Shown: positions 5,422 to 31,731 of the stretch, one piece after another
Layout: the number at the start of each line of letters is the position of its first letter
Position numbering within the stretch: position 1 is the stretch's first letter
IMG/VR virus record: IMGVR_UViG_3300023212_000059
Location: 602-64,601 of that record
Direction: 5' to 3' (one strand)
Length of the DNA: 64,000 nt
DNA from: a virus
Notes under the pieces: generated by a model
Database searches by the model: none
Told to the model about the DNA's origin: nothing
The model's input: the letters and a program-made list of their open reading frames with translations, nothing else
Translations under genes and position numbers: made by a program

Positions 5422-5829
5422 TCACGTCTTGATCCTCCGGCCGAGCCCCTGGACCACGCGTGTGATCAGGTTCGGCTTCGGCGGTTCAAGTGCAGGCTTT
5501 GTCGGTTCAGGTACAGGACCGTGGATTTCGATTCCGTCCCGTCCTCCCTCTATCGGGACACCGCCGGGCGGCGGTAACGCCAACGGCGTCGCGGGGAAGC
5601 GCTGAAATATTTCAAGAATCTTCTTGTTCAGTTCTGCGATCTGTCGGTCTTCAAGCGAGCGCTGCTGTCGGTCCTTCACGATCTTGTAGTCGTACTTCTT
5701 CTCCTGAGCCCACGCTCGGGCCTGCTCGGCTATCTCAAGCTCGTATTCAAGTCGCGGGATGTCAGACTCCCGGCCTTCGAGTGCAGCGAGGCGTAGTTGG
5801 TCCCGATAGAATTGCGGATCAGCCGCCAT
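5422..5829 (-). CDS. hypothetical protein with Pro-rich tail and RRIKT C-terminus
   Basis: Helical N-terminus, Pro-rich linker, ends GRRIKT*. Confidence 0.65.
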   Translation of the reverse strand: MAADPQFYRDQLRLAALEGRESDIPRLEYELEIAEQARAWAQEKKYDYKIVKDRQQRSLEDRQIAELNKKILEIFQRFPATPLALPPPGGVPIEGGRDGIEIHGPVPEPTKPALEPPKPNLITRVVQGLGRRIKT

Positions 5830-6163
5830 GAACACGAGCTTTCGCAAGCAGACGCTCGGCCTTTTCCAAGTCGTTCCGAGCGAGCGTGATCTTGTCCTTG
5901 AGCGTCTGGATGTAGCGGTTCCACGCGTCTTGAGGCGTAAAGCTCACCCACTCAGGCTGGTGACGAGAACGGCAGTGGAATTCCAAATCTGTTCGCTCCG
6001 TGAAGACCATCTTCGGACTGCGCTTGATGATCTTTGCACTGACGAGCTTCGGCGTTGGGTCTGGACCGTACGGCTCGTAAATAGCGTAGATGTACTCAGG
6101 CTCGTGGACTTGATCCACAGGCGGCCGTCCTGGGTTTAGCGGGATGCTCATGTTCTTCGACAC
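5819..6163 (-). CDS. hypothetical protein
   Basis: 114-aa ORF with C-terminal coiled coil. Confidence 0.6.
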   Translation of the reverse strand: MSKNMSIPLNPGRPPVDQVHEPEYIYAIYEPYGPDPTPKLVSAKIIKRSPKMVFTERTDLEFHCRSRHQPEWVSFTPQDAWNRYIQTLKDKITLARNDLEKAERLLAKARVHGG

Positions 6164-6522
6164 TCCTTTCGCTCAACGCGTTTGATGACATTGCAGTTAG
6201 CACAAAGCACTTGGTACTTGCTTTTGTCCAGGTCTCTCAGAACCTTGTAGTAAAACGCGGCACCGGGAAACGCTTTAAACTCGGCGTTGCCGCCGCCATT
6301 CACATGATCAATCTGAAGAGCCCGAACGTCATCATACCCGCATTTGCAACGCAAGTCTAGTCCACCAACTGCGTGAAGAGCACGGATACGGACTTCGTTG
6401 TAGTGCTGTCTTTGATACTCTGGCTCACGAGACGGCGAACACGCGCCAGCAGGACGCTGCCACCTAAAACGAGGTGTGCCACCTTTGTACGGCCGCTCTA
6501 CACGGACTAACCCTTGACGCAT
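6148..6522 (-). CDS. HNH endonuclease, same family as 73..435
   Basis: CKCG...LQIDHVNGGG...YQVLCANCN; A/T-richer; overlaps the rtcB 3' end. Confidence 0.8.
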   Translation of the reverse strand: MRQGLVRVERPYKGGTPRFRWQRPAGACSPSREPEYQRQHYNEVRIRALHAVGGLDLRCKCGYDDVRALQIDHVNGGGNAEFKAFPGAAFYYKVLRDLDKSKYQVLCANCNVIKRVERKECRRT

Positions 6523-7706
6523 AACACCTGTTTTAGCGTGTACACCACTTCGATCAGGTCACCTTGCGCGGCGATCACTGCGTCGATGTCCTTGTACGCG
6601 CCGGGCGTCTCATCGAGCACACCTTCGTCTGTCCGGCACTCCACACCGGCAACAGCGCGCTCGTGGTCTTCCTTCGTAAAGAGCTTCCGAGCGGCAGAAC
6701 GAGACATCCGTCGGCCGGCGCCGTGGCTGCACGATGTGAAACTCTCGACGTTGCCCTTGCCGCGCACGATGTACGAGCGGGTGCCCATCGAGCCCGGAAT
6801 GATGCCCATTTCACCCTCGCGAGCCGAGACGGCGCCCTTGCGAGTCACGAGCACGTTCTCGCCGAAGTGATTCTCTCGGCGCACGTAGTTGTGGTGGCAG
6901 TTCGCGACGACTTCGACGAAGCCGAGCCCCTTGTAACCGAGAATCGTCGCAAGCGCCACGCCGATCCGTTCGAGCATGAGCGCACGGTTCTCATACGCGT
7001 ACTTCTGAGCCCATCCGACCGCCTGGACGTAGTCGTTGAAGTGCTGCGTGCCCTCCGACAGGTATGCCAAGTCCTGGTCCGGCAGGTTGATGAAGTGAAC
7101 GCGCATGTCTTCACGGGCCAAGGTGATGAAGTAGTGTCCGATCACGTTTCCGATGTTGCGCGAGCCTGAATGGAGCATCATCCAGACCCGCTGATCCTGG
7201 TCCAGGCAAATCTCGATGAAGTGGTTGCCGCCGCCGAGCGAACCGAGTTGATCCACGATCCGGTTCGCGTTCTTGGCGACTTTCGGATGCTTCTGAGAAA
7301 TGATCGTGAAGTCCGAGGCCAACACCATGTTCCACGCCTCCTGAACAGGCTTTGGCACGAACGAACCATGCCCTTCTCGACCAACAGGGACCATCTTCTC
7401 GATGAGCCGGCGCAGAGGCTTCAGATCGGACGGAAGGTCGTTCGCCGTGAACTGCGTGCGAGCCGCTATCATGCCGCAGCCGATGTCCACACCGACAGCG
7501 GCCGGGATGATGGCGCCCTTCGTCGGGATCACAGAGCCCACAGTCGCGCCGATGCCCCAATGAACATCCGGCATGACAGCCACGTGCTTGAAGATGAACG
7601 GCAGGCTGGCGACGTTGCGAAGCTGATTCAGCGCCTCGTGCTCCACCTCGACGCCGTCCGTCCACATCTTGATCGGCTTGCGGTTCTGTTCGGCGATGAC
7701 GTTCAT
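6507..7706 (-). CDS. rtcB: RtcB family RNA ligase (2',3'-cyclic-phosphate/3'-phosphate to 5'-OH)
   Basis: MPDVH, VGVDIGCG, GSLGGGNHF, LHSGSR, CHHNY, GSMG, SCSHGAGR, DETPGAYK motifs; ATG at 7706 in an ATGA overlap. Confidence 0.95.
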   Translation of the reverse strand: MNVIAEQNRKPIKMWTDGVEVEHEALNQLRNVASLPFIFKHVAVMPDVHWGIGATVGSVIPTKGAIIPAAVGVDIGCGMIAARTQFTANDLPSDLKPLRRLIEKMVPVGREGHGSFVPKPVQEAWNMVLASDFTIISQKHPKVAKNANRIVDQLGSLGGGNHFIEICLDQDQRVWMMLHSGSRNIGNVIGHYFITLAREDMRVHFINLPDQDLAYLSEGTQHFNDYVQAVGWAQKYAYENRALMLERIGVALATILGYKGLGFVEVVANCHHNYVRRENHFGENVLVTRKGAVSAREGEMGIIPGSMGTRSYIVRGKGNVESFTSCSHGAGRRMSRSAARKLFTKEDHERAVAGVECRTDEGVLDETPGAYKDIDAVIAAQGDLIEVVYTLKQVLCVKG

Positions 7707-8074
7707 TTCCTCGCCTCCCATATCCCTTCGTAGGCTTTGACAGCGTCTTCAAGCCTCGCTTGCGCTTTTCGCGCTGCTGCGATGGCCTGATCCATCGTTT
7801 CTCCAGGATACACAGTAAAATTTTCGGCGCGTAACGTGTCTCTCACAACTTCTGTTCGCTTCGTGAACGCCTTGGCCGCCTCATACAACTTCTTTGACCC
7901 GGCAGTACGTCCGAGATAGTCCCGAGACCGTTGAAGCTCTTCTAGAACTGTGACGATCTCCTTGATCTCCCAAGCTTCGAGGACCATTTCCGCCTGCGGG
8001 CCGTCGTCCCGTTGATGGTCCTTGATCATGTCGATGATCTCGGTCAGCCGCTTGTTGGGCACGCAGTGAGGCAT
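7703..8074 (-). CDS. hypothetical protein
   Basis: Coupled ORF, 123 aa. Confidence 0.6.
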   Translation of the reverse strand: MPHCVPNKRLTEIIDMIKDHQRDDGPQAEMVLEAWEIKEIVTVLEELQRSRDYLGRTAGSKKLYEAAKAFTKRTEVVRDTLRAENFTVYPGETMDQAIAAARKAQARLEDAVKAYEGIWEARK

Positions 8075-8442
8075 TACGAAGTTCTCTTCTCGAAAAATAC
8101 CGTCGGTCTTCGATCTGTCTCGAAGAAGACCCGAAGCATGGAAAGCAACTCACGCTTACGATCAGAGCCAAGGCACGCTTGAAGAGCGATCCTCTGGATG
8201 TCCGTAAGCTCGTCAACCGAAAGCACACGAAGGTACACATGCTTGTTGCCGCCTTTGCTTACAGTCGTCTTTATGTGCTTTAAGAAGAACCCGTTGTTTT
8301 CCAATACTGCTTCCATAGCGGTAAAATGTTCCAAATCCACCGGATTATCAATATCCAGAAAAAGTTCATTCTTTTCTGGTTCAACACAGACGAGTCCTTC
8401 TCTTTCCGCAACCAACTTGGGGTTTTCGGAAAGCTCACTCAT
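8074..8442 (-). CDS. small protein with AEP (primase-polymerase)-like motifs
   Basis: ELFLDID and SKGGNKHVY resemble AEP motifs I and II. Confidence 0.45.
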   Translation of the reverse strand: MSELSENPKLVAEREGLVCVEPEKNELFLDIDNPVDLEHFTAMEAVLENNGFFLKHIKTTVSKGGNKHVYLRVLSVDELTDIQRIALQACLGSDRKRELLSMLRVFFETDRRPTVFFEKRTS

Positions 8443-8933
8443 CAGCGTTCCCCTTTCAGCAAGCGTTCGAACGCTTCGAGGTTGCCCATCGCATCGTTGA
8501 CCGGGTTGTGGTCGTGTGGCGTGACGCGCAGGCGCTTCCACTTCTGAGTCTCGTAGAAGTCGCCGCGCAGTCCGGCGTAGAAGTCCGAGATGCGTCGCGC
8601 AGAGTGACCGAATGGGTTGCGGCCAAGCGTACGCCAGAAGCCGTCCGCGATCCACATGAAGTCGTACGCCGGGTTGTCGCTGACCATGATGGCCCGTTTC
8701 CCACTGGTGGAAATGAGCCAATGCTCGAAGTCCTCGAAGACCTGACGCTCCTTCTCGAACGTCGGTTTGTCTCCAGGCAATGGCACAGCCGGGTTGTTCG
8801 GATCAGGGCTCGACCTGATGATCTGACCCCAAAACGTCTTGCGGCTCGGGTAGTGAACAGCGCCGAACTCGGTGAGTTGACCGGTCGCCGGACAGCCGCC
8901 GTACGCTTCGCAATCGACGAAGATGAGAGCCAT
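8442..8933 (-). CDS. DEDDh 3'-5' exo(ribo)nuclease, Rv2179c-like
   Basis: FVDCE (ExoI), SDNPAYD (ExoII), HNPVND (ExoIII). Confidence 0.8.
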   Translation of the reverse strand: MALIFVDCEAYGGCPATGQLTEFGAVHYPSRKTFWGQIIRSSPDPNNPAVPLPGDKPTFEKERQVFEDFEHWLISTSGKRAIMVSDNPAYDFMWIADGFWRTLGRNPFGHSARRISDFYAGLRGDFYETQKWKRLRVTPHDHNPVNDAMGNLEAFERLLKGER

Positions 8934-9112
8934 CACTTGTTCCCCTCGTTGTCCAGTTCGTCCTCGACCAAGTCGCGGCGCTCTTTGAACGCTCTGATGA
9001 TCTCGCCCAGGCCGTCCTTGAATTCTCCGAGCGAGCACTTCACCTTCTCGGCCTGACGGATGAAGTCCTGAGCCATATCGTACCAGAACTCGTCGTTCAG
9101 AGTCTTCGCCAT
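8933..9112 (-). CDS. hypothetical protein
   Basis: TGATG-coupled 59-aa ORF. Confidence 0.55.
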   Translation of the reverse strand: MAKTLNDEFWYDMAQDFIRQAEKVKCSLGEFKDGLGEIIRAFKERRDLVEDELDNEGNK

Positions 9113-9465
9113 CACTTCCCCACTTTCTTGCGAATGCTGACGCTGAATGTGTGGAGCCCGAGACCGTTCCACGAATTCGCGACTTCGTAGTCATGCAAGT
9201 CTCGTGTGACGGCTGCGATCATTGCGTCAATGTCAGCCTGCGCGAAGGCCGGGATTTCTTCGCCAAGCGAGTATAAGGACACCCGCATACATCCACCGTG
9301 CGCTTCAACGATCTTCCTGTTGGCCTCGTACTTCTTAACCTGCTTGGGCGTAGGGTCCTTGCGATGATCTCGCCCGAAGATCACGACAGGATGTCCGCCG
9401 GCACCTATAGCGAAGATGTACTTGAAGTCTGGGTGCTTGACCTTGTAGTTGAGATATTCACTCAT
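9112..9465 (-). CDS. hypothetical protein
   Basis: Coupled ORF starting MSEYLNY. Confidence 0.6.
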   Translation of the reverse strand: MSEYLNYKVKHPDFKYIFAIGAGGHPVVIFGRDHRKDPTPKQVKKYEANRKIVEAHGGCMRVSLYSLGEEIPAFAQADIDAMIAAVTRDLHDYEVANSWNGLGLHTFSVSIRKKVGK

Positions 9466-9614
9466 AGAGGCTTCCCCCAATTCGTGCAGCGACAGTCAAG
9501 CGCGAGTCCAACGTACTTCTCGCCGCACGTGAAACAGATGCCGCCACCGACTTTGCTTGCCATCCAGTACAGCGCGATGGCAAGTCCACGCTGGAAGATT
9601 TTTCTGAGCATGGT

Positions 9615-9830
9615 TCACTTCCCTTTCGGGAATTTCGAAACCAGCCCGATCATGTAGCTGAGGGACCTGCGCAGATCGCGAGCCTCAGCGAGTGTCATGA
9701 CCATCACACGTTTACTCGCTTGGAGCCAAATGCCAGGACCAGGGACAGCCTTGCCGTCGATGACCGAATACTCCGGGAAGCAGCACACGTGATCACGAAC
9801 CGGCGTCTTGGCCTTCATGCATAAAAGCAT
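9615..9830 (-). CDS. hypothetical protein
   Basis: 71-aa ORF. Confidence 0.45.
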   Translation of the reverse strand: MLLCMKAKTPVRDHVCCFPEYSVIDGKAVPGPGIWLQASKRVMVMTLAEARDLRRSLSYMIGLVSKFPKGK

Positions 9831-10362
9831 CTATGATTTGCTGTCTCCGGTCAACAACTATTTCGGCCGGCAGAGCCGTCGTTTCCTCTAGCGGGAATTC
9901 TCGTGGGTCCTGCCACGGTGAGGCGTTGATGGCCTCGAACTGACGGTCAATGTTCAGCACGTTGACCTGGACTGATCTAGGGGTGGCAGCAGGGTAGATG
10001 CTCGGGTACTCGCGCTTCAGGACTCGGTCGATAGTCGCAGAGTCAGCCTCAACCTTTTTCTCTTCGACAGTCGTAAGCGTCCTGTTGTCGGGCAGCTTGA
10101 CGATTTTCTTCTTGATCTCGACACGGGTGCCGATCTCCTTCTCCAACAGCTTGTTCCGATGAATGGCGCGAGCTTCCTGCATACGCTGGAAGAATCGCTG
10201 CGACCACTCCGGACCGTCACCAGAGCCTTGCTTCATCCATCGGTAAACAGACTGGACGGAGCAGCCGAACTGTACGGCTGAGCCAATCACATCGCCGGTC
10301 ACCTCGACGCGCTCGGCGATAAGCTCCTGAAGCTCATCCGTCAAAACCGTGGGCCTGCTCAT
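9793..10362 (-). CDS. terminase small subunit-like HTH protein
   Basis: MSRPTVLTDEL...AVQFGCSVQSVYRWMKQG HTH followed by a helical region typical of TerS; extended -10 TGgTAGACT just upstream. Confidence 0.55.
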   Translation of the reverse strand: MSRPTVLTDELQELIAERVEVTGDVIGSAVQFGCSVQSVYRWMKQGSGDGPEWSQRFFQRMQEARAIHRNKLLEKEIGTRVEIKKKIVKLPDNRTLTTVEEKKVEADSATIDRVLKREYPSIYPAATPRSVQVNVLNIDRQFEAINASPWQDPREFPLEETTALPAEIVVDRRQQIIDAFMHEGQDAGS

Positions 10363-10389
10363 CGTTGCCAAGTCTACCACAAATTCCCG

Positions 10390-10659
10390 CTAGCAGGACT
10401 TGGCGTGTGCCCTGGACTTATGGTTGCCACGGCACCAGTGACAGACCCGTTTCGGGGCTCGGGTAGGCCGCTCCTTGCCAGCCTGGAAGGACTTCGTGCC
10501 TGGGGTGCCAGGGACGTCCGTCGGCAGCCCTCGGGTGGTCCTGGAGAGCCGTGCGGCCTTACTGTGGCCATAGAACAGGAGCGCCGACGCCTTGGATCGG
10601 CTGGTGCTGGCCGAACCGAAGTTGGTCGGGAAGCGCTGCTCGTCTCGATGACCGCTCAT
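10390..10659 (-). CDS. hypothetical basic protein with CxxC
   Basis: ATGA-coupled; VCHWCRG. Confidence 0.45.
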   Translation of the reverse strand: MSGHRDEQRFPTNFGSASTSRSKASALLFYGHSKAARLSRTTRGLPTDVPGTPGTKSFQAGKERPTRAPKRVCHWCRGNHKSRAHAKSC

Positions 10660-11075
10660 GTCTTGATCCTCCTGAGCCTCACTGGTTTGAGCACCAGCGG
10701 AGGCGGTATGGGCTTCGGCTTTGGTTTCGGTTTCGGCCTGCTGCCACCAATCACTGCGACCTGAGTGAAGCCGAGCGCGTGGGCCGTATCCACCACCTGG
10801 AAACTCGTATCCACCTGGAAACTTACCGACTGCACGCTCACAGGAAGGTCTACGCCTTCGTTTTCGATCCAGACATTCAATGGCGGAGGCGGAGGAGGTG
10901 GAGGCTGCGTTCTGTGGAGCCCGCAGTTCCGACATTGCCACTCGTAATGATAGTCACCCTGCCCAAAGTAAAATTGCGGATCGTCGGGCACCATGATCCG
11001 GTCGAACTCGTGCGCACAATTCCGTTGCCTCTGAATCCTAGCACGTCGGTCGCGCCAGGATTTGAGCAGGTTCAT
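10656..11075 (-). CDS. Pro-rich hypothetical protein with RRIKT C-terminus
   Basis: CxH...CxxC, P8 run, PKPKPKPK, ends LRRIKT*. Confidence 0.65.
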   Translation of the reverse strand: MNLLKSWRDRRARIQRQRNCAHEFDRIMVPDDPQFYFGQGDYHYEWQCRNCGLHRTQPPPPPPPPLNVWIENEGVDLPVSVQSVSFQVDTSFQVVDTAHALGFTQVAVIGGSRPKPKPKPKPIPPPLVLKPVRLRRIKT

Positions 11076-11512
11076 GTCTTGATCCGGCGGAAAGGTCTCT
11101 CGGGCGGAAGCTGCGGACGGAGTGGAATCCGAACCGGTGGAGGCGGTGGGCTCGGATTGCGCGGTGGCTGCGGTGGCCGAACGACGCTAGGATAGGCTCC
11201 GCCCTTCTTTGCATCGACGTGACGTACGCGAGACTCCAATGTGTTTCCTTCGATTCGTTGACCTTGGCAGTGGCAAAATTCTCCCTGCTCCAAGGCCCGG
11301 AGGCAATAGCCACACTCCAACCCTACTACCACGTGGCCTATAGGCACGTTACCACTTTGGGACGACGTTATCGCCTGCACGAGAGTATTGACCTTGAATG
11401 GCACCTCACCATCCCGTAGCTGCAATCGACCGGGCATTCGAAAGACATTGGTGGCACTGAGGCTCGACACAGGTACATCGTCTATCACGTCGAACGACAC
11501 ATCGTCCATCAT
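11072..11512 (-). CDS. Pro-rich hypothetical protein with RRIKT C-terminus
   Basis: CxxC...CxC; Pro-rich tail; ends FRRIKT*. Confidence 0.65.
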   Translation of the reverse strand: MMDDVSFDVIDDVPVSSLSATNVFRMPGRLQLRDGEVPFKVNTLVQAITSSQSGNVPIGHVVVGLECGYCLRALEQGEFCHCQGQRIEGNTLESRVRHVDAKKGGAYPSVVRPPQPPRNPSPPPPPVRIPLRPQLPPERPFRRIKT

Positions 11513-11883
11513 GTCTTGATCCGACGCTGAATCCGATTCGACGGAGTCGGGTCAGGCATCGTCGGCGCCGGCATGACGTTTGGATCATCAGCAAGCCCGA
11601 AGAATCGCTTCACGAACTCCTTGATGGCTGGATCGGCTCGCTTACTGTTCCGATCCTCGAACTCCTTGGCTGCGATGCGCTTCTTCAACTCGTCGAATCG
11701 AGCTTGAGAAACGACGAGCTTGTTGCCTGTGAACGTGAACGCGGCGTCATCGAGGTTCTTGTCCACGACGACCTGGATGCCGAATAGCTCGGTCTGCTTA
11801 GTCTTGGGTTGCCACGATTCATGCAATCCTGGGGCTACTTCCAAGTCTGCGAGCGTGATCTTGGAGTGACTGGTCTTAGCCAC
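11509..11883 (-). CDS. hypothetical protein with RRIKT C-terminus
   Basis: Pro-rich tail; ends QRRIKT*. Confidence 0.65.
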   Translation of the reverse strand: MAKTSHSKITLADLEVAPGLHESWQPKTKQTELFGIQVVVDKNLDDAAFTFTGNKLVVSQARFDELKKRIAAKEFEDRNSKRADPAIKEFVKRFFGLADDPNVMPAPTMPDPTPSNRIQRRIKT

Positions 11884-13868: not shown

Positions 13869-14368
13869 CCCTGAATGTGCATCCGGCGCACATAATCAGC
13901 TATCAAGAGTGCTTCCGCACGACCGTCCAAAAGACGACCACGAGGCGTGCGGAACGAGTGCTGTGGGAACAACGCTTCGGCCATGACAATGCTCGCGTCC
14001 TTCTCCCGTCCTTTCCCACCAAACACATCCCGCTTCCATTTGGCCGGATGGACTTTCACGTGTGGAATCCCGTGCGCAGCTAACAAGCCGAGCCATAGAC
14101 CATAGCCTGTGCCGAACCGAAAGACTGAAACGACGCCTTCCATCGGGCGCGGACCGACTTCTTCGATGCCCGCTAGTATCGGCTGGTTGAACGCCAAGAT
14201 AGGGTTGAGCAATCGGTTCATCTCCGGTACGTCGAACTCCAGCTTCTCCTTCTTGCCGTTGCCAACGACCAGAATTGGGGTGTCGTAAACAGTACACTCT
14301 CGGGTCTCTGTCACTGTCAATACCGCTATGGCGCCTTGAAAACCTGGGTCGATTCCTACATAGATCAT
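13859..14368 (-). CDS. ruvC: RuvC-like Holliday junction resolvase
   Basis: VGIDPG, IEEV, FRFGTGYG, PAKWK, DGRAEALLIA. Confidence 0.85.
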   Translation of the reverse strand: MIYVGIDPGFQGAIAVLTVTETRECTVYDTPILVVGNGKKEKLEFDVPEMNRLLNPILAFNQPILAGIEEVGPRPMEGVVSVFRFGTGYGLWLGLLAAHGIPHVKVHPAKWKRDVFGGKGREKDASIVMAEALFPQHSFRTPRGRLLDGRAEALLIADYVRRMHIQGKL

Positions 14369-14736
14369 GTCTTGATCCTCCGACCGCTCACTTCGGGCAG
14401 GTCAGGTGCCGGAACAGGGTCTTCGACAAGAGTACCATCAAGAGACTTCACGAGTCCGACCTGCTGGAGCGCCCAGGCCATCGCTACTTCTTCACCATCG
14501 AACTGTTTCGCTATCGCGTCCCACTTGTTGACGTCGGTATCCTTCGAAATGCGCACATGCCACACGAGCTTACCATAAGGGTGCTCCTGGACAACCGGGA
14601 ACACGACGACGTGCCAGTGCTTGAACTTGAACCACTTGTTCCCCTTCTCACTCGTACGCCACGTGATCGGCTTGATCGGCTTCGAGCCCAAGAGCCTCCA
14701 CTTTCGGTTCGGATCACGGATGAGCCGGTCAGTCAT
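14365..14736 (-). CDS. hypothetical protein with RRIKT C-terminus
   Basis: Ends PVPAPDLPEVSGRRIKT*. Confidence 0.65.
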   Translation of the reverse strand: MTDRLIRDPNRKWRLLGSKPIKPITWRTSEKGNKWFKFKHWHVVVFPVVQEHPYGKLVWHVRISKDTDVNKWDAIAKQFDGEEVAMAWALQQVGLVKSLDGTLVEDPVPAPDLPEVSGRRIKT

Positions 14737-14737
14737 G

Positions 14738-17210: not shown

Positions 17211-17527
17211 AAGAACCTCCCTTCCATCGGCCGCCCGTCTCGAATGGTCAAGACTTCGAACTTCGAGGCAATCGCCCAGAGTCGGTCCATCTCTTCAAGG
17301 AATACACGAGTCCAGGTTCGCAGACCATCACCGAAGCGACGATCTCCCGGACCAACGTGTTTGTTCGCCTCGGCCTCAGCGAGCGGGATGAGCTTGTTCC
17401 GGTTCTTGATGTACTCACAGTCGTGCTGTGCATCAATCCGAATCTTTCGAAGGTTATGGAATCGTCCCTCGTACATGAAGCCCTCATCGCACTTGCAGGT
17501 CATTTCCACAGTCGGCGTGCCTCCCAC
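17198..17527 (-). CDS. hypothetical protein
   Basis: 109-aa ORF. Confidence 0.55.
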   Translation of the reverse strand: MGGTPTVEMTCKCDEGFMYEGRFHNLRKIRIDAQHDCEYIKNRNKLIPLAEAEANKHVGPGDRRFGDGLRTWTRVFLEEMDRLWAIASKFEVLTIRDGRPMEGRFLCQS

Positions 17528-17622
17528 CCCACGAGCAAGCCTAACATGAAAAGACCGAAGCCCAGGAGACTAATTTTCAGGTCCTCAAGATTTTCCCACC
17601 AGAGGAAATACTCATGAAGCAT
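17500..17622 (-). CDS. small membrane peptide
   Basis: 40 aa, one TM segment. Confidence 0.45.
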   Translation of the reverse strand: MLHEYFLWWENLEDLKISLLGFGLFMLGLLVGWEARRLWK

Positions 17623-17872
17623 AGTCGATTTGCACTTCGAGACCGAGCGCATTGACGTAGGCCACGAAGGTGTCCATGCGAAGCCTGATCTTGCCGCGCT
17701 CGAAGTGCGATACCCACGTGAAGTCCTTCCCGAGCTTCTTGGCAACGTCAGTCTGGGAGAGCTTCAGTCGCTTCCGTTCATGGACCAGATACTTCCGAAC
17801 GTCCTTCTCGAACTCCTTCTCGCTCTTGTAGGAAGTGGCATGAAAAGTCTTCACGTCTTGGTCCTCAGACAA
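17612..17872 (-). CDS. XRE-family HTH transcriptional regulator
   Basis: ERKRLKLSQTDVAKKLG...WVSHFERG. Confidence 0.85.
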   Translation of the reverse strand: MSEDQDVKTFHATSYKSEKEFEKDVRKYLVHERKRLKLSQTDVAKKLGKDFTWVSHFERGKIRLRMDTFVAYVNALGLEVQIDYAS

Positions 17873-18864
17873 TCGAGCCCGAACTTCAGAATCGCTGCTC
17901 GCCCACCTTCGTCCAGATCAGGGTACTTTCGATCCACGTAGCTCTGCATGATGTCCGCGTCGAGCATCACGCCGGCCGTGAGCGCCGCGACGGCTTCCGT
18001 TGGCACTTCGGCCTCGACGGTAGTACAGTCGAGCCACCCGAGCTTCACGGCTCGCTCGCGCACGTCTACCAGCCGGTCTCTCGACACGTTGAGCACACGA
18101 AGAAACCCTGCCTCGCTCGGCGCCGGGACCTTCGGATACTTCGTCGTGATGAACTTCGGCGCGTCGAGCTTCAACGGCGTCAGGTTCGAGTCCTCATCAA
18201 ACAACCAACAGAATCGGTCGCCAGCGTCTCCGAAGTCGAAGTGCAGCGGAGCGCCGACATACGTGACGCGGCCGTCCGTTGTCTGACTCGGCGTGTGGAC
18301 GTGGCCTAGAATCACCCTCTGGAACTCGCTCAACGATTCCAGCTTGAGCGTGGACGGTAGAGAGAATTCGTTGTCAAGCGGCGTGCCGTCGAGCGCATAG
18401 TGGAGGAAGATATTCTCCGCATCTTCTGCGGAGAATCCGGGGTCTTTCACCGCATCAGGCACTTCATCCCCCGGCATCCACGGCACGAAGAAGCCGTACT
18501 GCGTCCAGGTCGGCTTGTCGATGACGACCCAACCGGCGTACCGGTATGGGTCCAGGCTGTGAACGCCGACTGACTCGTAGTCGTGATTCCCGACGAGCAT
18601 ATACGCGCTGCCTGGAACCTTTCCTTCGAGGTTCACGAGCTTCGCCATCAGCTTGTTGTAGACGGCGAAGTTCACGAAGTATCGGCGGTGGGTCACGTCG
18701 CCGAGGACGATAAGGCTCTGCGGGCGGTAGTCCAGGATGTACTTAGAGACCTGGTCAAGAACGTCGAGCAGGTGCTTGAACCGGCTGTTCGTACCGTCCG
18801 GCAGCGTCGTCGCGAACCGCGTCCATGCGTGCGCGTGCAGGTCCGAAATGATGAGAGCGTTCAC
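17851..18864 (-). CDS. Mre11/SbcD (T4 gp47-like) nuclease
   Basis: SDLH, LGD, GNHD, FLH, GHVH metallophosphoesterase motifs; paired with the SMC ATPase. Confidence 0.9.
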   Translation of the reverse strand: MNALIISDLHAHAWTRFATTLPDGTNSRFKHLLDVLDQVSKYILDYRPQSLIVLGDVTHRRYFVNFAVYNKLMAKLVNLEGKVPGSAYMLVGNHDYESVGVHSLDPYRYAGWVVIDKPTWTQYGFFVPWMPGDEVPDAVKDPGFSAEDAENIFLHYALDGTPLDNEFSLPSTLKLESLSEFQRVILGHVHTPSQTTDGRVTYVGAPLHFDFGDAGDRFCWLFDEDSNLTPLKLDAPKFITTKYPKVPAPSEAGFLRVLNVSRDRLVDVRERAVKLGWLDCTTVEAEVPTEAVAALTAGVMLDADIMQSYVDRKYPDLDEGGRAAILKFGLDCLRTKT

Positions 18865-19560: not shown

Positions 19561-19561
19561 A

Positions 19562-21413: not shown

Positions 21414-21416
21414 CTC

Positions 21417-23400: not shown

Positions 23401-23469
23401 GCCCTTAGTTGTACTCCCTCTTAGAAAAAACGTCAAGTCCTGAAAGATCAGTTTCCTGCTGACGGGAAA

Positions 23470-26028: not shown

Positions 26029-26210
26029 GTGGAGAAGATTCCTAGCTTCTTCTGAAGCGCGGCCATCTCGTACGTGATCCTCTCGTACTCAACCCGAGAG
26101 AACGGCTGGCCAGACGCGTCAGTGCCGCGAGCAAGCTTGGCCTTCAACCGACCCAGAGCTTTCTTGCGCCGCTCCTGGACATCACCGAGTTGCCGCTTGC
26201 GGCCTTTCAT
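26025..26210 (-). CDS. basic hypothetical protein
   Basis: 61-aa helical ORF. Confidence 0.55.
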   Translation of the reverse strand: MKGRKRQLGDVQERRKKALGRLKAKLARGTDASGQPFSRVEYERITYEMAALQKKLGIFST

Positions 26211-26217
26211 CGCGTAG

Positions 26218-26292
26218 AAAAAAGGCCGGTGGTCACTTGTCTAAAAAGGTGCCGCACAAATGCGACCCATGAGTTTTTCGACCCACCGGCCA
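26218..26292 (-). terminator. terminator-like long-loop stem followed by T6
   Basis: GGCCGGTGG...CCACCGGCC then TTTTTT on the minus strand. Confidence 0.3.
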
Positions 26293-26307
26293 TAGGAACG
26301 AACTGTA

Positions 26308-26826
26308 TCACGCTTTGATCCGTCGAGCAATCGTCTGTTTTCCTCCAGCGGGAATTCTCTGGCCGACGATGCCGACAGGGACGACGGCGTAGCCTCCGGT
26401 GATGTAGCCGCCGGCCTGCTCCAGGATCGCCCGGCCCAGGTTCTCAAGCGCGGTCTGGACAGCCTCGACAGGAACGGACGCCTCGCACCAGAAAGTAAAG
26501 TCGGTCGGGTCCGATTTCGTAAAGGCCGAGATGTAGGCCCCGACCATCTTGTGGCGGAGATGCCCTGGAGTCCCATGCCTCGGGCACTCGAATGCAGCGA
26601 GCACAGCCCTACGGCCAGCGCTGCCGGGCTCCCAGAGGACGCCTGGGAACTCAATGGCCGGGACGTCGTCATCCTGGAGCCGAACACACCCCCACGGAGG
26701 ACGGTGCAGATGAGCCCGTAGAGCTTTGTTCGGGATGGCGGTATTGCTCGGGAAGGGACGGAAAGCGACGCTGATCTCCCGGTACGGGCCGTTCGGCTTC
26801 TTAGCTACCGCGTATGAGAAGTGCAT
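26308..26826 (-). CDS. hypothetical protein with RRIKA C-terminus
   Basis: 172 aa; ends IARRIKA*. Confidence 0.6.
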   Translation of the reverse strand: MHFSYAVAKKPNGPYREISVAFRPFPSNTAIPNKALRAHLHRPPWGCVRLQDDDVPAIEFPGVLWEPGSAGRRAVLAAFECPRHGTPGHLRHKMVGAYISAFTKSDPTDFTFWCEASVPVEAVQTALENLGRAILEQAGGYITGGYAVVPVGIVGQRIPAGGKQTIARRIKA

Positions 26827-26837
26827 CGCTCACCTGA

Positions 26838-26890
26838 TTCTAGCACATCCATCTGCTAGGTTTTGGCCCAATGTTTATGCGGGTTCTAGC
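26838..26890. repeat. copy 1 of a conserved ~50-bp element (copy 2 at 37217-37269)
   Basis: TTCTAGC-N10-GCTAGGTTTT-N7-TGTTTATGCGGGTTC-N-AGC; on the minus strand it overlaps an extended -10 TGcTAGAAT. Confidence 0.8.
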
Positions 26891-27020
26891 CTTCCTATCG
26901 GATGTCGCGTTGAAGAGACATCCGATAGGCTTTTCCACAACATCCTGGGGAGTCTCGACGAGCGTTCCACAAGATTCGGTGGAGCGCTCGTCGGCTCTAG
27001 CACTTGATTCCGAAAATAGG

Positions 27021-27233
27021 TCACACAGGGAGAGCGATCTCCTTGGCGCCCATGCTCTTCATGACGTCGAAAAGCTCCGTCTCGAACCGTACGCGCCGAA
27101 GCTCGTCGAGGAAACCTTCGTCTTCGGCGACTCGCTCGGCACACGGATCACAGATGCCGTGCGTCACCGTCGGATCATCCAGAGGTTCCTTCTCCCCCTG
27201 GTCCTTGTCGCACCATGCGCAAACGACCTTCAT
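27021..27233 (-). CDS. Zn-binding hypothetical protein
   Basis: VCAWC...THGICDPC. Confidence 0.65.
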   Translation of the reverse strand: MKVVCAWCDKDQGEKEPLDDPTVTHGICDPCAERVAEDEGFLDELRRVRFETELFDVMKSMGAKEIALPV

Positions 27234-27426
27234 GTGAACCCTGCCTCTCTGCGCCCTTCAGAAGCTTCTTGCCCTCTCGAACCAGAGCCGGCGCGAGCCC
27301 ATAGGTCTCCAGGACCCGCAGAGCCCGGCGCAACAGCCGCATCGACAGAGACAGCCTCCGCATCCCGACCCCTCTCTTGAACGCCTCGGCCATCTCACTG
27401 TCGTAGTCTTCGTAGTAGTTGCTCAC
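27175..27426 (-). CDS. hypothetical protein
   Basis: GTGA-coupled ORF; overlaps the next gene. Confidence 0.4.
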   Translation of the reverse strand: MSNYYEDYDSEMAEAFKRGVGMRRLSLSMRLLRRALRVLETYGLAPALVREGKKLLKGAERQGSHEGRLRMVRQGPGGEGTSG

Positions 27427-27686
27427 GCGGACCACCCCCTTGCAGTCCGAGCCTGAAGGTATTCCACCTCCGCCGCCAGTGCGGCCTCACGGCTCGGGTA
27501 CACCTCATCGAGCATGATGGTGTTGTTCGGCCACAACACCCTCCAGCCTTGCTCGTCGTTGTCGTACTCGACGTTGCTGGCCCGCTCGACGGCCAGCGTT
27601 GGTCCGATGATCCGCTTCAGGTCCACCTCTTCGGTGTACAGGGTCTCGACCCTTCCACCTCCCGACCGGATCACGATGGTCTTCAT
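27423..27686 (-). CDS. small protein typically found with DUF2997/DUF1257 modules
   Basis: IVIRSGG...LYTE.VDL...VERASNVEY...W...F/YPSREAALAAEVEYL pattern. Confidence 0.65.
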   Translation of the reverse strand: MKTIVIRSGGGRVETLYTEEVDLKRIIGPTLAVERASNVEYDNDEQGWRVLWPNNTIMLDEVYPSREAALAAEVEYLQARTARGWSA

Positions 27687-27708
27687 GTTTCCCTCCAGCA
27701 GGAAATTT

Positions 27709-27801
27709 TTAGTGAATCAACCCCGCGCCTTTCATCGCGAGGAAGAACACGTAAACCAGAGACACGTAGCACACGGACCAGAGCACTATCCGCCACCACA
27801 T
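27709..27801 (-). CDS. 30-aa hydrophobic peptide MWWRIVLWSVCYVSLVYVFFLAMKGAGLIH
   Basis: Fills the gap exactly; single TM segment. Confidence 0.45.
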   Translation of the reverse strand: MWWRIVLWSVCYVSLVYVFFLAMKGAGLIH

Positions 27802-27803
27802 GG

Positions 27804-27986
27804 CTACGTGCTCTGGTACTCAGACTGCTCGGACGTCTGGTACATCTCGGGCGTCGGCGCATCCGAGACCTTCACGCCCAGGAGCCGTTCGAGCCCCTTG
27901 GTCGCCTCGGCGCACGCCGGACCAGAGAAGCCCTCCGTCTTCACCGTGAACTTCCCACCCTTCGAACGGATGACGATGCGCTCCAT
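27804..27986 (-). CDS. DUF2997 family protein
   Basis: IVI...G.FTVKTEGFSGPACAEATKGLERLLG...TPEMYQ. Confidence 0.8.
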   Translation of the reverse strand: MERIVIRSKGGKFTVKTEGFSGPACAEATKGLERLLGVKVSDAPTPEMYQTSEQSEYQST

Positions 27987-27987
27987 G

Positions 27988-28365
27988 TCACACCTCCCTC
28001 TTCAGTATAGCGATCTCAGAGTTTCGTTTCACGAATTCTGGAGTGAACGACTTCTTGAACTCCGGGTCCGTGGCCCGGAACTTCAGACGGAACACGAGCC
28101 CTTCATCACCAGGCTGGAACCAGAACTGCACACGCTGCACCTTCGGCTTGAACGAGAACAGCATCTCGAACGCTGCTGCCGTGGTCTCGTACCCGATACC
28201 AGATTCAGCCGGACCCTTCGCCAACCACTGCATGGCTTCGGAGAGCCCGACCCGACGGAACGAGTACGTCCCGTCCGACGACAGCACGGCCGATGAAAGG
28301 ATGTACCGGCCGTGCGGCCGTTGGACGCCTTCAAGCCCCTGGATGCCGTTGAACGGCGTGCCCAT
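27988..28365 (-). CDS. DUF1874 / STIV B116 / AcrIII-1-like protein (His-to-Tyr variant)
   Basis: YILSSAVL...EA...SGIGYETTA...QRVQ...GD.GLVFRLKFR matches the B116/YddF pattern. Confidence 0.7.
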   Translation of the reverse strand: MGTPFNGIQGLEGVQRPHGRYILSSAVLSSDGTYSFRRVGLSEAMQWLAKGPAESGIGYETTAAAFEMLFSFKPKVQRVQFWFQPGDEGLVFRLKFRATDPEFKKSFTPEFVKRNSEIAILKREV

Positions 28366-28366
28366 C

Positions 28367-28789
28367 TCAGTACCGTTGCAGGTAGATCACCTGCTCGTCG
28401 CCGTCCATCTCTCGGCTGGCCACGAAGTTGTTGATGCCGGCCTCCTGCTGCGCCGCCGCCCAGACGTACTCGTTCATGAGCTTCGACGCATTCTCCCCGA
28501 GAATCTTGCGACCCTCCGAGTCGCGGCCGAAGCTCCCGCTCAGAAGCTCCGAGTCGCAGACGAAGTCATACGACTGCGTCTGGTCGTTGCGCTTCAGACC
28601 CAGGTCGTACTTGCCGGGAAGCGACACGACGTAGTCGCACTCGGGCGCCTCGTCGTTGTACATCTTCGCGTCGGTGTAGTAGTACCGAGGCTTCCCACCG
28701 ACCTTGAGCGTCAGCCCCATGTTCTGGAGCGCGACGCGAAGCACGTCGATGTCCGTGATCTGGGAATTTCCCTTGACGATGTGGCTCAT
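28367..28789 (-). CDS. DUF1257 family protein
   Basis: MSHI....QITDIDVLRVAL..MG...CDYVV....YDLG......YDFVCD. Confidence 0.75.
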   Translation of the reverse strand: MSHIVKGNSQITDIDVLRVALQNMGLTLKVGGKPRYYYTDAKMYNDEAPECDYVVSLPGKYDLGLKRNDQTQSYDFVCDSELLSGSFGRDSEGRKILGENASKLMNEYVWAAAQQEAGINNFVASREMDGDEQVIYLQRY

Positions 28790-28851
28790 TTGCCTACCCC
28801 TTTCTCTGCTTCCTCTAGCGTGGGATACACGTCCCACGAAGCACCGCACTG

Positions 28852-29094
28852 TCAGCCATGACCAGACGTGTCCGACCACTCCATGAAAACACCGAACCGT
28901 CCATCCGAGAGCAGAACAATGATCTTCGACTCCGTGTCCTCGTACGTCTGGGCTTCCTCGATGTAAGCATCGACAACGTGCGTCACTGACTCCAAGACTT
29001 CATCCGTCATCTCGGGGAGCCAATGATCAGAGTCGCGAAACGCCTTCGCGTACTCTCTGAAGTCCGGAACGGAAATTTCCTTGCGCACCTTCAT
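28852..29094 (-). CDS. acidic hypothetical protein
   Basis: 80 aa; ends WSDTSGHG. Confidence 0.55.
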   Translation of the reverse strand: MKVRKEISVPDFREYAKAFRDSDHWLPEMTDEVLESVTHVVDAYIEEAQTYEDTESKIIVLLSDGRFGVFMEWSDTSGHG

Positions 29095-29248
29095 GACCAA
29101 TCCCCCTGCTGAATGATTCGCCACATCTCACCCTCAGAGATATGGAGTCCATCCGCCATCCGTCGGACCATACGACGGGTATCCCTCCGTAGCTTCCAGC
29201 ACTGAAGCCGAAGCACTGCGACGTAGATCGTATTCCACATCGAGTAGA

Positions 29249-30178
29249 TCACGACTTGATCCTCCGCGAATACGCTGCCGTGATCAGGTTCACGTCCCCG
29301 ATGTTCGAGGCAATCTTCCGTACCGACTCCAGAGCGTTCGTGAGCGACGTCACGGCTGCCGCGTCAGTCTGGTACGTCTCGGCCGTCGCCAGCGACCGCG
29401 ACAGTTCCTCCAGCTTCGCTTCGACCTGAGAATCGCCCACGAAGTTGAGGCTCTTGAACTTCCCGACGAATTCGCGGATTCGGTTCAGGCTGCCCTCACC
29501 CAGAGAGCCGTTCTTCACCCGCTCCGCGATGGAGTTGCAAAGCTCAACCGTCTGACCGCGCAATGCCGAGACCGCCTCTCCAAGGAAGCGGTTCATCCGC
29601 TCGTCGAGCTTCGCCTGGTACTTGGCGATGGCGGCATCCTCGGCTTGCTGCTTCTTGATCACCTTCGGCATTGTAATCGAATACAGGCTGTATTCAAAGC
29701 TGAATTTACCGGACAGGAGCTTACGATCCGGGTACTGCTTCTCCAGCCGGCGGCGGTGTTCCGGGAACCGCTTCAGATACTCTTCCCGGCGCACCTCGTA
29801 GTTGCGGAGGAAGTCATCGACCGCTCCCTCGAACTCCTTCTTGATCTCTTCGAGCGTCTTCACCAGGTCGTCCATCTTCGCGGCCGGCACGAACTGTCCC
29901 TCGCCGACCGGGAACTTGAACGAGACCTTCTCAATCTCGTACCGGGCACGATCCGCATAGCGGCCCCACCGCAGCACGTCTTCCTTCGGCAGCAACCGCT
30001 TCGTGCCGAGCCCTGCCACGAACTCGGGAAGCTCGGCACGCTTCACGCCCAGGTCCTTCTCCGAGTTGGCGCGCGTGGCTCGCCAGAACTCGACGTCCAG
30101 GTTCACCAGCACGCCGTCGGTGAACAGCCGCTCCATTGTCTCGTGCGTCCGCTCGTCGTGCTTGACGTTGGCAGTCAT
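29249..30178 (-). CDS. DUF3150-like helical protein with RRIKS C-terminus
   Basis: GVLVNLDVEFWRA...GTKRLLP...FVP; directly after the Ycf46-type AAA gene. Confidence 0.65.
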   Translation of the reverse strand: MTANVKHDERTHETMERLFTDGVLVNLDVEFWRATRANSEKDLGVKRAELPEFVAGLGTKRLLPKEDVLRWGRYADRARYEIEKVSFKFPVGEGQFVPAAKMDDLVKTLEEIKKEFEGAVDDFLRNYEVRREEYLKRFPEHRRRLEKQYPDRKLLSGKFSFEYSLYSITMPKVIKKQQAEDAAIAKYQAKLDERMNRFLGEAVSALRGQTVELCNSIAERVKNGSLGEGSLNRIREFVGKFKSLNFVGDSQVEAKLEELSRSLATAETYQTDAAAVTSLTNALESVRKIASNIGDVNLITAAYSRRIKS

Positions 30179-31731
30179 TACTTGATCCTCCTTCCGGTCG
30201 CCGTCTCAGCGCTGGAGCTTTTTCCCGCTGGTCGGATTTTGTGGTCCTTCGCCCACTTGCGAATGGCCTCCACATCACTCGCCCGTGAGACTGACAGAGG
30301 CGTGATCGCCTCAATCGCCTCGGCCAGCCGCTCGAACGACACTGACTTCTCGCTAGCCGAGAATGCTGCCTGCATCGCTGCCTGAACGATGTTGCGAATC
30401 TCGCGGCCGTTGTAGCCGTGAGTCTTGATGGCCAGCCGCCGGATTTTCTCAGCGTCCAGCTTGATGTTCCGCGCGGCGAGATGGATGGTGAAAATCTCCA
30501 CCAACTCATCTTCGTCGGGCAGGTCCACGAAGTACGTCCGCTGGAACCGGTTCATCATCTCCGGGGGCAACTGGTCCACGCGGTTGATCGTCGCGACGAC
30601 CATCACCCGAGCCCGGAACTGCTCGAACCACGTCAGGATGGTTGCACCGATGCGCGCCTCCCAAGGATTCTGGGTGCTCGCACCGCTGGCGCCAGCGAGA
30701 CCCTTTTCGGCCTCGTCCCACCAGTCCACGACCGGCGCCATCGCTTCGACGAGCTTGTTGCGCTGCTCGATGTTGTTCTCAGCGGCACCGACCTTGCCAC
30801 CGCCGGCCGAGAAGATTCGGCCGAAGTCAGTGCGCACCGCACCGACCTGGAGCAGTTGTGGAATCGCCTCCGCCGTAAGGGACTTACCGGTCCCAGGCAC
30901 GCCGATGAGCGCGATGGAACGCGGGAAGTCTTCGTCACGGAACCCGAACGCCTTCGCCTTGTCCGGGTTGTGGAAGATCGGAGCGATGACCTTCAGGTCA
31001 GCCTTCAGGTTGCCGAGCCCACCCACGTCGTCGATGCTGACCTTCGGCTCGACCCACTCGACCAGGTTCGACTTCTTGATCGCACCGGCCTTCTCGTTGC
31101 GGACCGTCGCGACCGCCCGGCCGTTGAACTTCCGCACCTTGTCGTCGCGCGTCCGAGACCACGCCAGCGAGAACGCGTTCTCCGCCTCGCTGCTCGTGAG
31201 CCCCGACGCTGCGTCGAGGATAGCCGCGCGGTCCTCCACCTCGGGCTTGCCGCGCGCGTAGGTCTTCCCGACTTCCGCCACCACGGCGTCGAGCTTGTCG
31301 CCCAACTCTTCGCGGGTCGGGAGCGCGAAGTTGACGACGGTCATCTCCTTCTCAAGCTCGGTCGGGATGTCCAGAACCGGCGAGAGAATGATCAGAGTCT
31401 TAGCCTGAGACTTGCAGAGCGGAATGATGTCCCGGAGCATCCGGTTCGTGGCCGGATTCTTCAGATACGGGTGGAAGTCACGGAAGATGTACAGCGCCTC
31501 CGACGGCATATTGATCACCTGCTCGATGGCCTGCTTCGGGTCTTGGCTCTTCTGCACCTTGCCGTCGTCGCTGGCCCACCCCTGCGTGACCGACCAGCGC
31601 CAGAACCCGGCCTTCTCAGCCTTCGCGACTTCCTGAAGCTCCTTCTCCGCGCGCTCTTCCTCGTGAGTGACGATCCAGAGCGCCGGAAAGGCTGCCTGGG
31701 TGTAATCGGTGATGTCGCTCTTGAAGCTCAT
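30178..31731 (-). CDS. Ycf46-type AAA+ ATPase with RRIK C-terminus
   Basis: N-terminal P.LWIVTHEEER / FRDFH degenerate domain; Walker A GVPGTGKS, Walker B WWDEAEK, SRH ATINR...RF...FVDLP. Confidence 0.9.
   Translation of the reverse strand: MSFKSDITDYTQAAFPALWIVTHEEERAEKELQEVAKAEKAGFWRWSVTQGWASDDGKVQKSQDPKQAIEQVINMPSEALYIFRDFHPYLKNPATNRMLRDIIPLCKSQAKTLIILSPVLDIPTELEKEMTVVNFALPTREELGDKLDAVVAEVGKTYARGKPEVEDRAAILDAASGLTSSEAENAFSLAWSRTRDDKVRKFNGRAVATVRNEKAGAIKKSNLVEWVEPKVSIDDVGGLGNLKADLKVIAPIFHNPDKAKAFGFRDEDFPRSIALIGVPGTGKSLTAEAIPQLLQVGAVRTDFGRIFSAGGGKVGAAENNIEQRNKLVEAMAPVVDWWDEAEKGLAGASGASTQNPWEARIGATILTWFEQFRARVMVVATINRVDQLPPEMMNRFQRTYFVDLPDEDELVEIFTIHLAARNIKLDAEKIRRLAIKTHGYNGREIRNIVQAAMQAAFSASEKSVSFERLAEAIEAITPLSVSRASDVEAIRKWAKDHKIRPAGKSSSAETATGRRIK

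Follow-up and report, generated by a model that had tools for sequence, protein, structure and literature searches.

A recurrent C-terminal RRIK peptide as a putative docking tail of a Ycf46-like AAA+/DUF3150 gene module in a viral contig

Why would eight proteins of one uncultured virus, with no pairwise similarity in BLASTP at E < 0.01, end in the same four residues? The question is raised by a 64,000-nucleotide stretch of IMG/VR record IMGVR_UViG_3300023212_000059 (the window; bases 602-64601 of a single 74,221-bp viral contig), in which eight minus-strand open reading frames (ORFs) end in RRIKT (five ORFs, at window positions 5422, 10656, 11072, 11509 and 14365), RRIKA (26308), RRIKS (29249) or RRIK (30178). 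The last two encode a DUF3150 protein and a Ycf46-like AAA+ ATPase, and the other six are called accessory carriers here. With moderate confidence, and from sequence comparison, we regard this ending as a portable docking tail of an AAA+/DUF3150/DUF1257/DUF2997 gene module, which would be read by one co-evolving site and would tether the accessory carriers to it. All window features described below lie on the minus strand, and related genomes and loci carry labels beginning with G or L.

The tag was described in an earlier note made from the sequence alone, and every sequence statement of that note is correct on re-reading of the ORFs. In our own rough gene calls for the whole proteome (137 genes, 23,438 aa), the enrichment that it had proposed to compute is also found: RRIK occurs 8 times, while 0.31 copies are expected anywhere and 0.004 at a fixed C-terminal register. 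All 8 copies are at the extreme C-terminus and there are 0 internal copies. The accessory carriers are scattered across 25 kb, three of them (10656, 11072 and 11509) are tandem neighbours, and Pro-rich stretches stand directly before the tag in 5 of the 6, as previously noticed.

Upstream (5') of the 15–18 nt tag the copies are unlike in their DNA, apart from 5422 and 29249, which have a weak match of 12 nt, and a long duplicated 3' segment was therefore rejected as the source of the tag. In this match, N-L-I-T and the 12-mer GAACCTGATCAC are common to the 5422 carrier and the DUF3150 gene and lie shortly upstream of the tag (window 5425-5475 and 29252-29295); the local score is 24, where the 99% null is 20. 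It weakly suggests that one tag was copied from the 3' end of the DUF3150 gene.

The tag overlaps the start of the next gene in 7 of 8 copies (ATGA, GTGA or TAATG), and a nucleotide string conserved at such a place would always yield the same peptide, so whether the peptide or the nucleotides are kept is the main question. In five of the eight copies a GGAGG precedes the next start by 8 nt, within the 5–10 nt upstream of a start that we took as the range of a Shine-Dalgarno core; it is absent at 11072, 11509 and 26308. In these three copies the Arg codons are CGC, CGT or CGA followed by CGG, by which GGAGG is destroyed and Arg-Arg is kept. Over the eight copies, the first Arg is encoded by CGG (three), AGG (two), CGC, CGT and CGA (one each), the second by AGG (five) or CGG (three), and Lys by AAG (seven) or AAA (one). 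The codons and the division into five copies with GGAGG and three without had been given before and were confirmed codon by codon. Among the eight copies there are nine nucleotide differences in the four core codons, and 9 of 9 are synonymous, while about 25% would be expected under random change.

Other features of the genome point the same way. The identity of ATC and AAG among copies is what codon bias predicts (72% and 82%), and other GGAGG-plus-ATGA junctions in the genome encode many different peptides. The earlier note had reasoned that the peptide would be discredited if homologs kept the string GGATCAA without the peptide, or if the motif occurred out of frame before start codons. The reverse was found on both counts: distant homologs keep the peptide with other nucleotides and outside the ribosome-binding site (RBS) register, and GGATCAA was not found out of frame before other start codons of the genome. 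Moreover, the 17-mer of the tag has 13 single hits in IMG/VR, where about 12 are expected by chance according to our own estimate, and the tag was rejected as a widespread DNA element on this ground. In summary, the comparison supports selection on the RRIK peptide, as the earlier note had suggested, with an RBS constraint present as well.

The second constraint is visible in the codons. AGG makes up 8% of Arg codons genome-wide, yet it fills 5 of 8 second-Arg positions, which indicates that these five copies, and only these, are under an additional RBS constraint. They are genuinely dual-coded, serving as tag and as Shine-Dalgarno sequence of the overlapping next gene. The earlier note was right that the copies without Shine-Dalgarno sequence keep RRIK, but it underrated the real Shine-Dalgarno role of the other five. 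In the closest fragment (L004; AAA 69% and DUF3150 59% identical), the tags are kept as GRRMK and HRRIKT, both again overlapped by GTG starts of small ORFs.

Four of the tag copies share 14 identical nucleotides, and near-copies of the tag DNA exist elsewhere in the window. CAAGAC-ATG lies in an intergenic RBS at 63266, AGGACCAAGACGTGA at 17851, and GGATCAAGACGTG is read through at 36233. The last belongs to a 64-aa ORF (36190-36384) that holds this string in the tag frame (G-R-I-K-T; motif 36221-36233), followed by TGC instead of TGA and by 11 more residues, and it may be a former or nascent tag. The copy at 17851 ends the gene of an SbcD/Mre11-like phosphoesterase (17851-18864), whose last residues L-R-T-K-T (AGG ACC AAG ACG TGA), overlapping the next start, are one nucleotide from the tag (Ile to Thr). 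A 40-aa ORF at 17500-17622 ends in A-R-R-L-W-K, and these two genes may be degenerate carriers. A negative example for tag hunting comes from two relatives, G002 (IMGVR_UViG_3300037424_000553; 2443-4190) and G001 (69646-71181), in which K-K-G-K, encoded by AAGAAAGGnAAGTGATG, is the ending of several neighbouring genes; this looks like a recurrent C-terminal peptide made by a ribosome-binding site.

The tail in homologs and its spread within phages

If the peptide matters, it should be sought in homologs of the two module proteins. In the three nearest IMG/VR phages, whose AAA is 44–47% identical to the window AAA, the AAA and DUF3150 homologs end in related peptides, encoded by other nucleotides and several codons before the stop. 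Examples are R-A-V-K-L-P, and P-R-x-I-R-L-P in both proteins of L003; in L003, L005 and L006, among others, the homolog tails differ in nucleotides from the tag and sit outside the RBS register.

An exhaustive search with DUF3150 returned 1253 relatives at E <= 1e-3. Most of 147 diverse representatives (25–43% identity) have the ending D-[VI]-S-x-[VI]-T-G-x-Y-[KRF]-R-[RK]-[IL]-x-[LIV], 0–3 residues from the C-terminus, and a strict regular expression for TG-x-Y-[KRF]-R-[RK]-[IL]-x-[LIV] matches 94 of the 147. In about 120 AAA homologs, the fold ends with W-A-x-x-R-x-R-P-A-S, then follow a variable linker of 10–20 residues and R-[RK]-[ILV]-x-h. Judged from these alignments, the basic-hydrophobic tail marks the C-terminus of the AAA family and of the DUF3150 family as a conserved signature. 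The tail is not special to this phage, which has RRIK as its own version.

The tails of the two families also vary together. We compared the AAA and DUF3150 tails of 24 distinct loci with both proteins (23 related phage loci and the window), using the best ungapped 6-mer BLOSUM score. Matched pairs score 13.3 in average and mismatched pairs 9.5 (permutation p = 5e-5). For example, both proteins of L176 carry an identical octapeptide, and R-x-[VI]-x-L-[ND] is shared in L156, L161 and L177.

Further proteins take part in this sharing. In 73 other distinct phage loci, 18 further ORFs end in the tail of their own phage, against 6.6 expected from the tails of other phages (p = 4.5e-4). Such extra carriers include a 134-aa protein of G001 and a 78-aa protein of G002, both ending in R-A-V-K-L-P and far from the module (about 60 kb in G001), three R-x-I-R-L-R proteins in L035, three R-x-I-[KR]-V proteins in L036, and proteins ending in R-R-I-[AV]-L in L006 and L007. 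The C-terminal rate ratio of a loose motif is 0.39 in 13 unrelated viral contigs (no enrichment) and 3.4 in module-bearing relatives. By this comparison, the window phage is an extreme case of a general habit, with six extra carriers. The assignment of the tag to the AAA/DUF3150/DUF1257/DUF2997 module, made in the earlier note, is thus upheld by the family signature, by the co-variation within phages and by the recurrence on further proteins in module-bearing phages.

Two more loci were observed in this survey. In the cultured Rhizobium phage vB_RleS_L338C (L038; 13833-14471 and 22182-22595), gp051 beside the homologous AAA (gp050) ends in A-R-R-A-V-K-L and gp060 ends in R-K-L-R-V-E-V-A; this phage may be a tractable system for the tail. 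In the actinophage-like L165 (11451-12428 and 13422-13607), the AAA ends in G-R-V-L-D-L and two neighbouring ORFs end in M-F-D-L and W-F-D-L; none of the neighbours has a Pfam family. Judged by these endings, tail sharing may extend to module variants without DUF1257/DUF2997.

Candidate readers and competing explanations

RRIK(T/S/A) would then be this phage's version of a short C-terminal linear motif of the Ycf46-like AAA+/DUF3150 module, the general form being an invariant Arg, Arg/Lys, Ile/Leu/Val, any residue, and a hydrophobic or small residue. It is presented in different ways: on a predicted disordered leash of 15 residues in the ATPase, at the end of the last predicted helix in DUF3150, and after Pro-rich linkers in accessory proteins. 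As a basic-aliphatic peptide, the tail would tether its carriers to a site with which it co-evolves, and one such site is most likely because tails within one phage are alike and vary in step from phage to phage. Accessory proteins would have gained the tail so that they are tethered there, whether as clients, as adaptors or as regulators of the ATPase machine. The candidate site is the ATPase ring itself or the DUF1257/DUF2997 pair. That there is a single reader, that it is a module component, and what binding would bring about, are points that we infer from the pattern of tails. More speculatively, R-[RK]-[ILV]-x-h close to the C-terminus could act as a portable tail code that selects the partners of a Ycf46-like machine, which is found in phages, plasmids and many bacteria and archaea and has relatives in cyanobacterial/plastid ycf46. 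The code would drift and co-evolve phage by phage, and RRIK would here mark six fast-evolving clients or adaptors.

A link between the tail and DUF1257/DUF2997 is seen in cellular genomes. In a set of 40 cellular loci, each flanked by 4 kb or more on either side, DUF1257/DUF2997 genes are nearby in 10 of 10 loci with the strict tail motif and in 7 of 30 without it (Fisher p = 2e-5), and five of these seven carry variant tails. In the 23 loci with neither feature, many AAAs stop right after R-P-A-S and a few have other tail-like endings. A complex prediction of DUF1257, DUF2997 and an 87-aa module protein against the AAA tail (residues 478-517) gave no answer (score 0.00, without controls) and counts neither for nor against binding. 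The AAA itself is the only constant component and an equally good candidate for the reader.

Several points weigh against the docking-tail interpretation. The link between the tail and DUF1257/DUF2997 holds at clade level only: the traits change 4–5 times on the AAA tree, which gives 3 independent pairs and no statistical power. About half of the phage loci with tailed AAAs (R-x-L-D-L type) have no DUF1257, DUF2997 or DUF3150 detectable by hidden Markov models (HMMs), so a module partner would not be a universal reader. For example, no partner family was found by HMMs or Pfam in L165 and L188, which have R-x-L-D-L-tailed AAAs, and DUF1257/DUF2997 is weakened as universal reader by these two loci. 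Mycobacterium phage Shida gp98 also ends in a tail of the R-x-L-D-L type, and no neighbour there shares the tail. As no homologs of the six accessory carriers were detected, their tags are untrackable through evolution. For the five GGAGG copies, the two constraints cannot be separated by sequence comparison, and L004 is uninformative there. In DUF3150, the motif lies in a confidently modelled helix and not in a free tail, and may have a structural role; the AlphaFold2 (AF2) model of this protein has a predicted local distance difference test score (pLDDT) of 93.9, and its last helix (293-308) is capped by the tag.

The activity of the ATPase needs similar care. Its pore loop 1 is G-K-V-G (K313-V314-G315; AAA residues 311-316, window 30790-30800), with no aromatic residue, and thus lacks the aromatic-hydrophobic-Gly pattern of threading unfoldases. 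In the family, the first position of pore loop 1 is L, K, R or I and never aromatic, as in the p97 D1 ring. A threading or unfoldase role, unproven from the sequence, should therefore not be assumed.

Four other explanations were weighed. In the first, which we consider unlikely, the tail is read by a host factor, such as a host AAA+ protease or an adaptor site, and serves as a degron, decoy or hijacking tag. The end of the ATPase, R-R-I-K-COOH, resembles the XB tail of SspB, R-V-V-K-COOH, which binds the ClpX N-domain; XB has the full sequence RGGRPALRVVK-COOH, and the pattern of basic ClpX signals at C-termini is R/H-x-K/R-K-hydrophobic (PMC3983244). The placement of the tags on flexible linkers at the extreme C-terminus, and the many tailed phage AAAs without detectable DUF1257/DUF2997 partners, would also suit a host reader. 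However, R-R-I-K-T/S/A departs from the consensus of the MuA-like ClpX C-motif-2 degron (PMC3983244) at positions 3 and 5, which are occupied by Ile and by a small polar residue, respectively. The co-variation of AAA and DUF3150 tails phage by phage would be unexpected for a conserved host site, and AAA homologs of many bacterial phyla keep the tail. Tailed AAAs are also found in archaeal metagenome-assembled genomes and, as archaea to our knowledge lack ClpX, this argues against a bacterial host protease such as ClpX as the reader.

Slightly less probable is a tail with no dedicated reader. It would be a generic basic cap at the C-terminus, by which proteins might, for instance, touch nucleic acid or membrane or end a helix; it would be of use to many proteins and spread easily. 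The motif is indeed short and basic, it ends a helix inside the confident DUF3150 fold, and no receptor was found in our analysis. Nevertheless, a generic cap would need neither an invariant Arg with a fixed Ile/Leu/Val pattern nor confinement to C-termini (8 of 8), and it would not co-vary in detail within a phage, as the L176 octapeptides and the R-x-[VI]-x-L-[ND] set do.

A nucleotide-level signal is improbable. The peptide would in that case be a by-product of a fixed ATGA register, in which Shine-Dalgarno sequence, spacer and overlapping start act in translational coupling or junction recombination. The overlap with the next start in 7 of 8 copies, the five GGAGG made with the rare AGG, the 14 nucleotides common to four copies, the near-copies at 63266, 17851 and 36233 and the RBS-made K-K-G-K tails of G001 and G002 speak for it. 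It does not explain why three copies without Shine-Dalgarno sequence keep Arg-Arg, why 9 of 9 differences are synonymous, why other Shine-Dalgarno-plus-ATGA junctions encode many peptides, or why homologs conserve the peptide with other nucleotides away from starts; ATC/AAG identity fits codon bias, and the 17-mer is at chance level in IMG/VR.

That the tail packs its carriers into virions as a capsid-targeting or cargo-loading peptide, like encapsulin cargo or the HK97 protease C-terminus, is hardly credible: the carriers do match the architecture of encapsulin cargo, in which the loading peptide is C-terminal and follows a Pro-rich linker, but the same tail is present on AAA homologs in chromosomal, non-viral contexts (contigs of 0.1–8 Mb), and no structural gene of the phage carries it.

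Carrier genes, module genes and their surroundings

Within the window, the AAA+ ATPase gene (30178-31731; tag codons 30181-30192) encodes a 517-aa protein that ends in GRRIK. It matches the classic clade of AAA+ (SpoVK/Ycf46/Vps4 group) with the Pfam domains AAA (PF00004; E 2e-16) and AAA_lid_3, and its sequence matches in PDB are Cdc48/p97 chains (E 7e-37). Walker A is GVPGTGKS at 277, and Walker B is at 334 (DWWDEAE at 336). The AF2 model (pLDDT 93) indicates a degenerate AAA-like N-terminal half, an active AAA domain and a disordered tail, residues 503-517 having pLDDT 49–72.

The DUF3150 gene (29249-30178; tag codons 29252-29266) encodes 309 aa ending in YSRRIKS, and is assigned to Pfam DUF3150 (PF11348; E 4e-27) with 95.4 bits against a gathering cut-off of 24.9. 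Foldseek against PDB gave no match at E <= 1e-3, only generic helical bundles, and the idea that DUF3150 is PspA/ESCRT-III-like found no support in this search. The next gene is a conserved 53-aa basic ORF (29091-29252), whose GTG start overlaps the DUF3150 stop; it has a homolog at the same place in L004 (3036-3188 of that fragment; E 3e-20) and is therefore a real gene. Between AAA and DUF3150, an additional ORF of 75 codons is inserted in L004.

The module gene set in this region further includes two small ORFs, DUF1257, a STIV_B116-like protein, DUF2997 and a conserved 87-aa protein. DUF1257 (28367-28789; Ycf35-like, Pfam PF06868, with homologs in 9 related loci) and DUF2997 (27804-27986; Pfam PF11211, E 3e-12) are untagged core proteins of the module and the candidate readers named above. 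AAA, DUF1257 and DUF2997 are co-oriented neighbours here, and the same set is found in 9 related loci. Inserted between DUF2997 and DUF1257 is the untagged STIV_B116-like (DUF1874) protein (27988-28365; Pfam E 3e-9). The 87-aa protein (27423-27686), which follows DUF2997, has a DUF2997-like N-terminus, M-K-x-I-V-I-R-S-G-G-G; its conservation in six related phages makes it a core member of the module, one that Pfam does not cover.

The accessory carriers have no Pfam or PHROG match. The protein ending in ARRIKA (26308-26826; tag 26311-26325) has 172 aa and no Shine-Dalgarno sequence in its tag, and no homolog of it was found among 5.8 billion proteins. The 123-aa protein ending in SGRRIKT (14365-14736; tag 14368-14382) has a Pro-rich linker and a tag that doubles as GGAGG for the next gene, and no match to it was found in G001-G003. 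The protein ending in QRRIKT (11509-11883; tag 11512-11526) has a Pro-rich linker, a length of 105–124 aa depending on its uncertain start, and the Arg codons CGT CGG without Shine-Dalgarno sequence. Its neighbour ending in FRRIKT (11072-11512; tag 11075-11089; 146 aa) has a long Pro-rich linker and the Arg codons CGC CGG, also without Shine-Dalgarno sequence. The third member of the tandem, ending in LRRIKT (10656-11075; tag 10659-10673; 139 aa, no significant family match), contains poly-Pro and PK repeats, and its tag doubles as GGAGG. So does the tag of the 141-aa protein at 5422-5847 (tag 5425-5439), which has a Pro-rich linker and ends in NLIT-x7-RRIKT.

The stretch of about 95 nt following the RRIKA gene (26210-26310) is terminator-like: it has a long-range stem (GGCCGGTGG...CCACCGGCC) as well as an inner hairpin, and a run of T. 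The same stretch is an open frame of 33 codons that overlaps both neighbours, its GTG with the upstream TGA and its own TGA with the ATG that comes next. From its sequence it could be either a terminator or a small coupled gene, and it is not certain that a downstream gene is absent there.

As for the contig, its G+C content is 55–62% and nearly all genes are on the minus strand. A megablast search of two window segments against a phage collection found no near relatives. The region holds a replication/recombination block, comprising PolA with a uracil-DNA glycosylase domain, a gp32-like single-stranded DNA-binding protein, RecA, an SbcCD-like pair, a primase-helicase and RtcB, and the tag region holds many small ORFs.

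Meaning and closest known systems

The AAA+/DUF1257/DUF2997(/DUF3150) module is widespread in phages, plasmids and many bacterial and archaeal genomes, and is related to the orphan genes ycf46 and ycf35. In the open literature on DUF3150, DUF1257, DUF2997, their Pfam accessions and Ycf46/Ycf35, we found only genome-content papers and nothing functional. The statement of the earlier note that the tag had no prior description holds for this literature; docking tails for AAA+ machines are known, and a description of this machine and code was not found there. A shared co-evolving tail would be a first handle on the module, defining the network of the machine in each phage (eight proteins here). 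It predicts a single binding site and turns small genes without homologs into a testable set. If true, it would represent a virus-encoded, reprogrammable address system for an undescribed remodelling machine. The dual coding of a protein tag and the RBS of the next gene in a 15-nt stretch also calls for caution when recurrent C-terminal peptides of compact genomes are interpreted.

Three known systems come close. Proteasome activators dock by C-terminal tails, namely HbYX (hydrophobic-Tyr-X) of PAN/Rpt/Cdc48 and GQYL, which is shared by mycobacterial Mpa and Bpa/PafE. There, as proposed here, an AAA+ ATPase and a non-ATPase protein share a leashed C-terminal tail for one receptor, and this is the best analogy for the shared ending of AAA and DUF3150. 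The tails differ in being basic-aliphatic here and hydrophobic-Tyr-X there; none of the carriers has a Tyr in its last three residues, and the module has no known peptidase or ring-shaped receptor.

Cofactors of classic-clade AAA+ proteins offer a second comparison. The p97/Cdc48 cofactor motifs (VBM and VIM) and the C-termini of ESCRT-III proteins (the Vps4 MIT-MIM interaction) are short, often C-terminal, Arg-rich helical motifs that direct many unrelated cofactors to such an ATPase. The DUF3150 tag is likewise Arg-rich and, in its AF2 model, helical. However, those motifs bind dedicated N-terminal domains (the p97 N-domain and MIT), which the ATPase here lacks.

The third system is the SspB XB tail and the ClpX N-domain of Escherichia coli ClpXP. 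In both cases a flexible linker is followed by a basic-hydrophobic peptide at the extreme C-terminus, R-V-V-K-COOH there and R-R-I-K-COOH here. Such peptides tether different proteins to a single AAA+ machine, and a number of unrelated proteins compete for one site of the N-domain of ClpX (PMC3983244), much as we propose for the eight carriers of RRIK. Unlike ClpX, the ATPase here, as known from its sequence and model, is of the Cdc48/Ycf46-like classic clade, has a degenerate AAA-like N-terminal half and no zinc-binding N-domain, and carries the tail itself.

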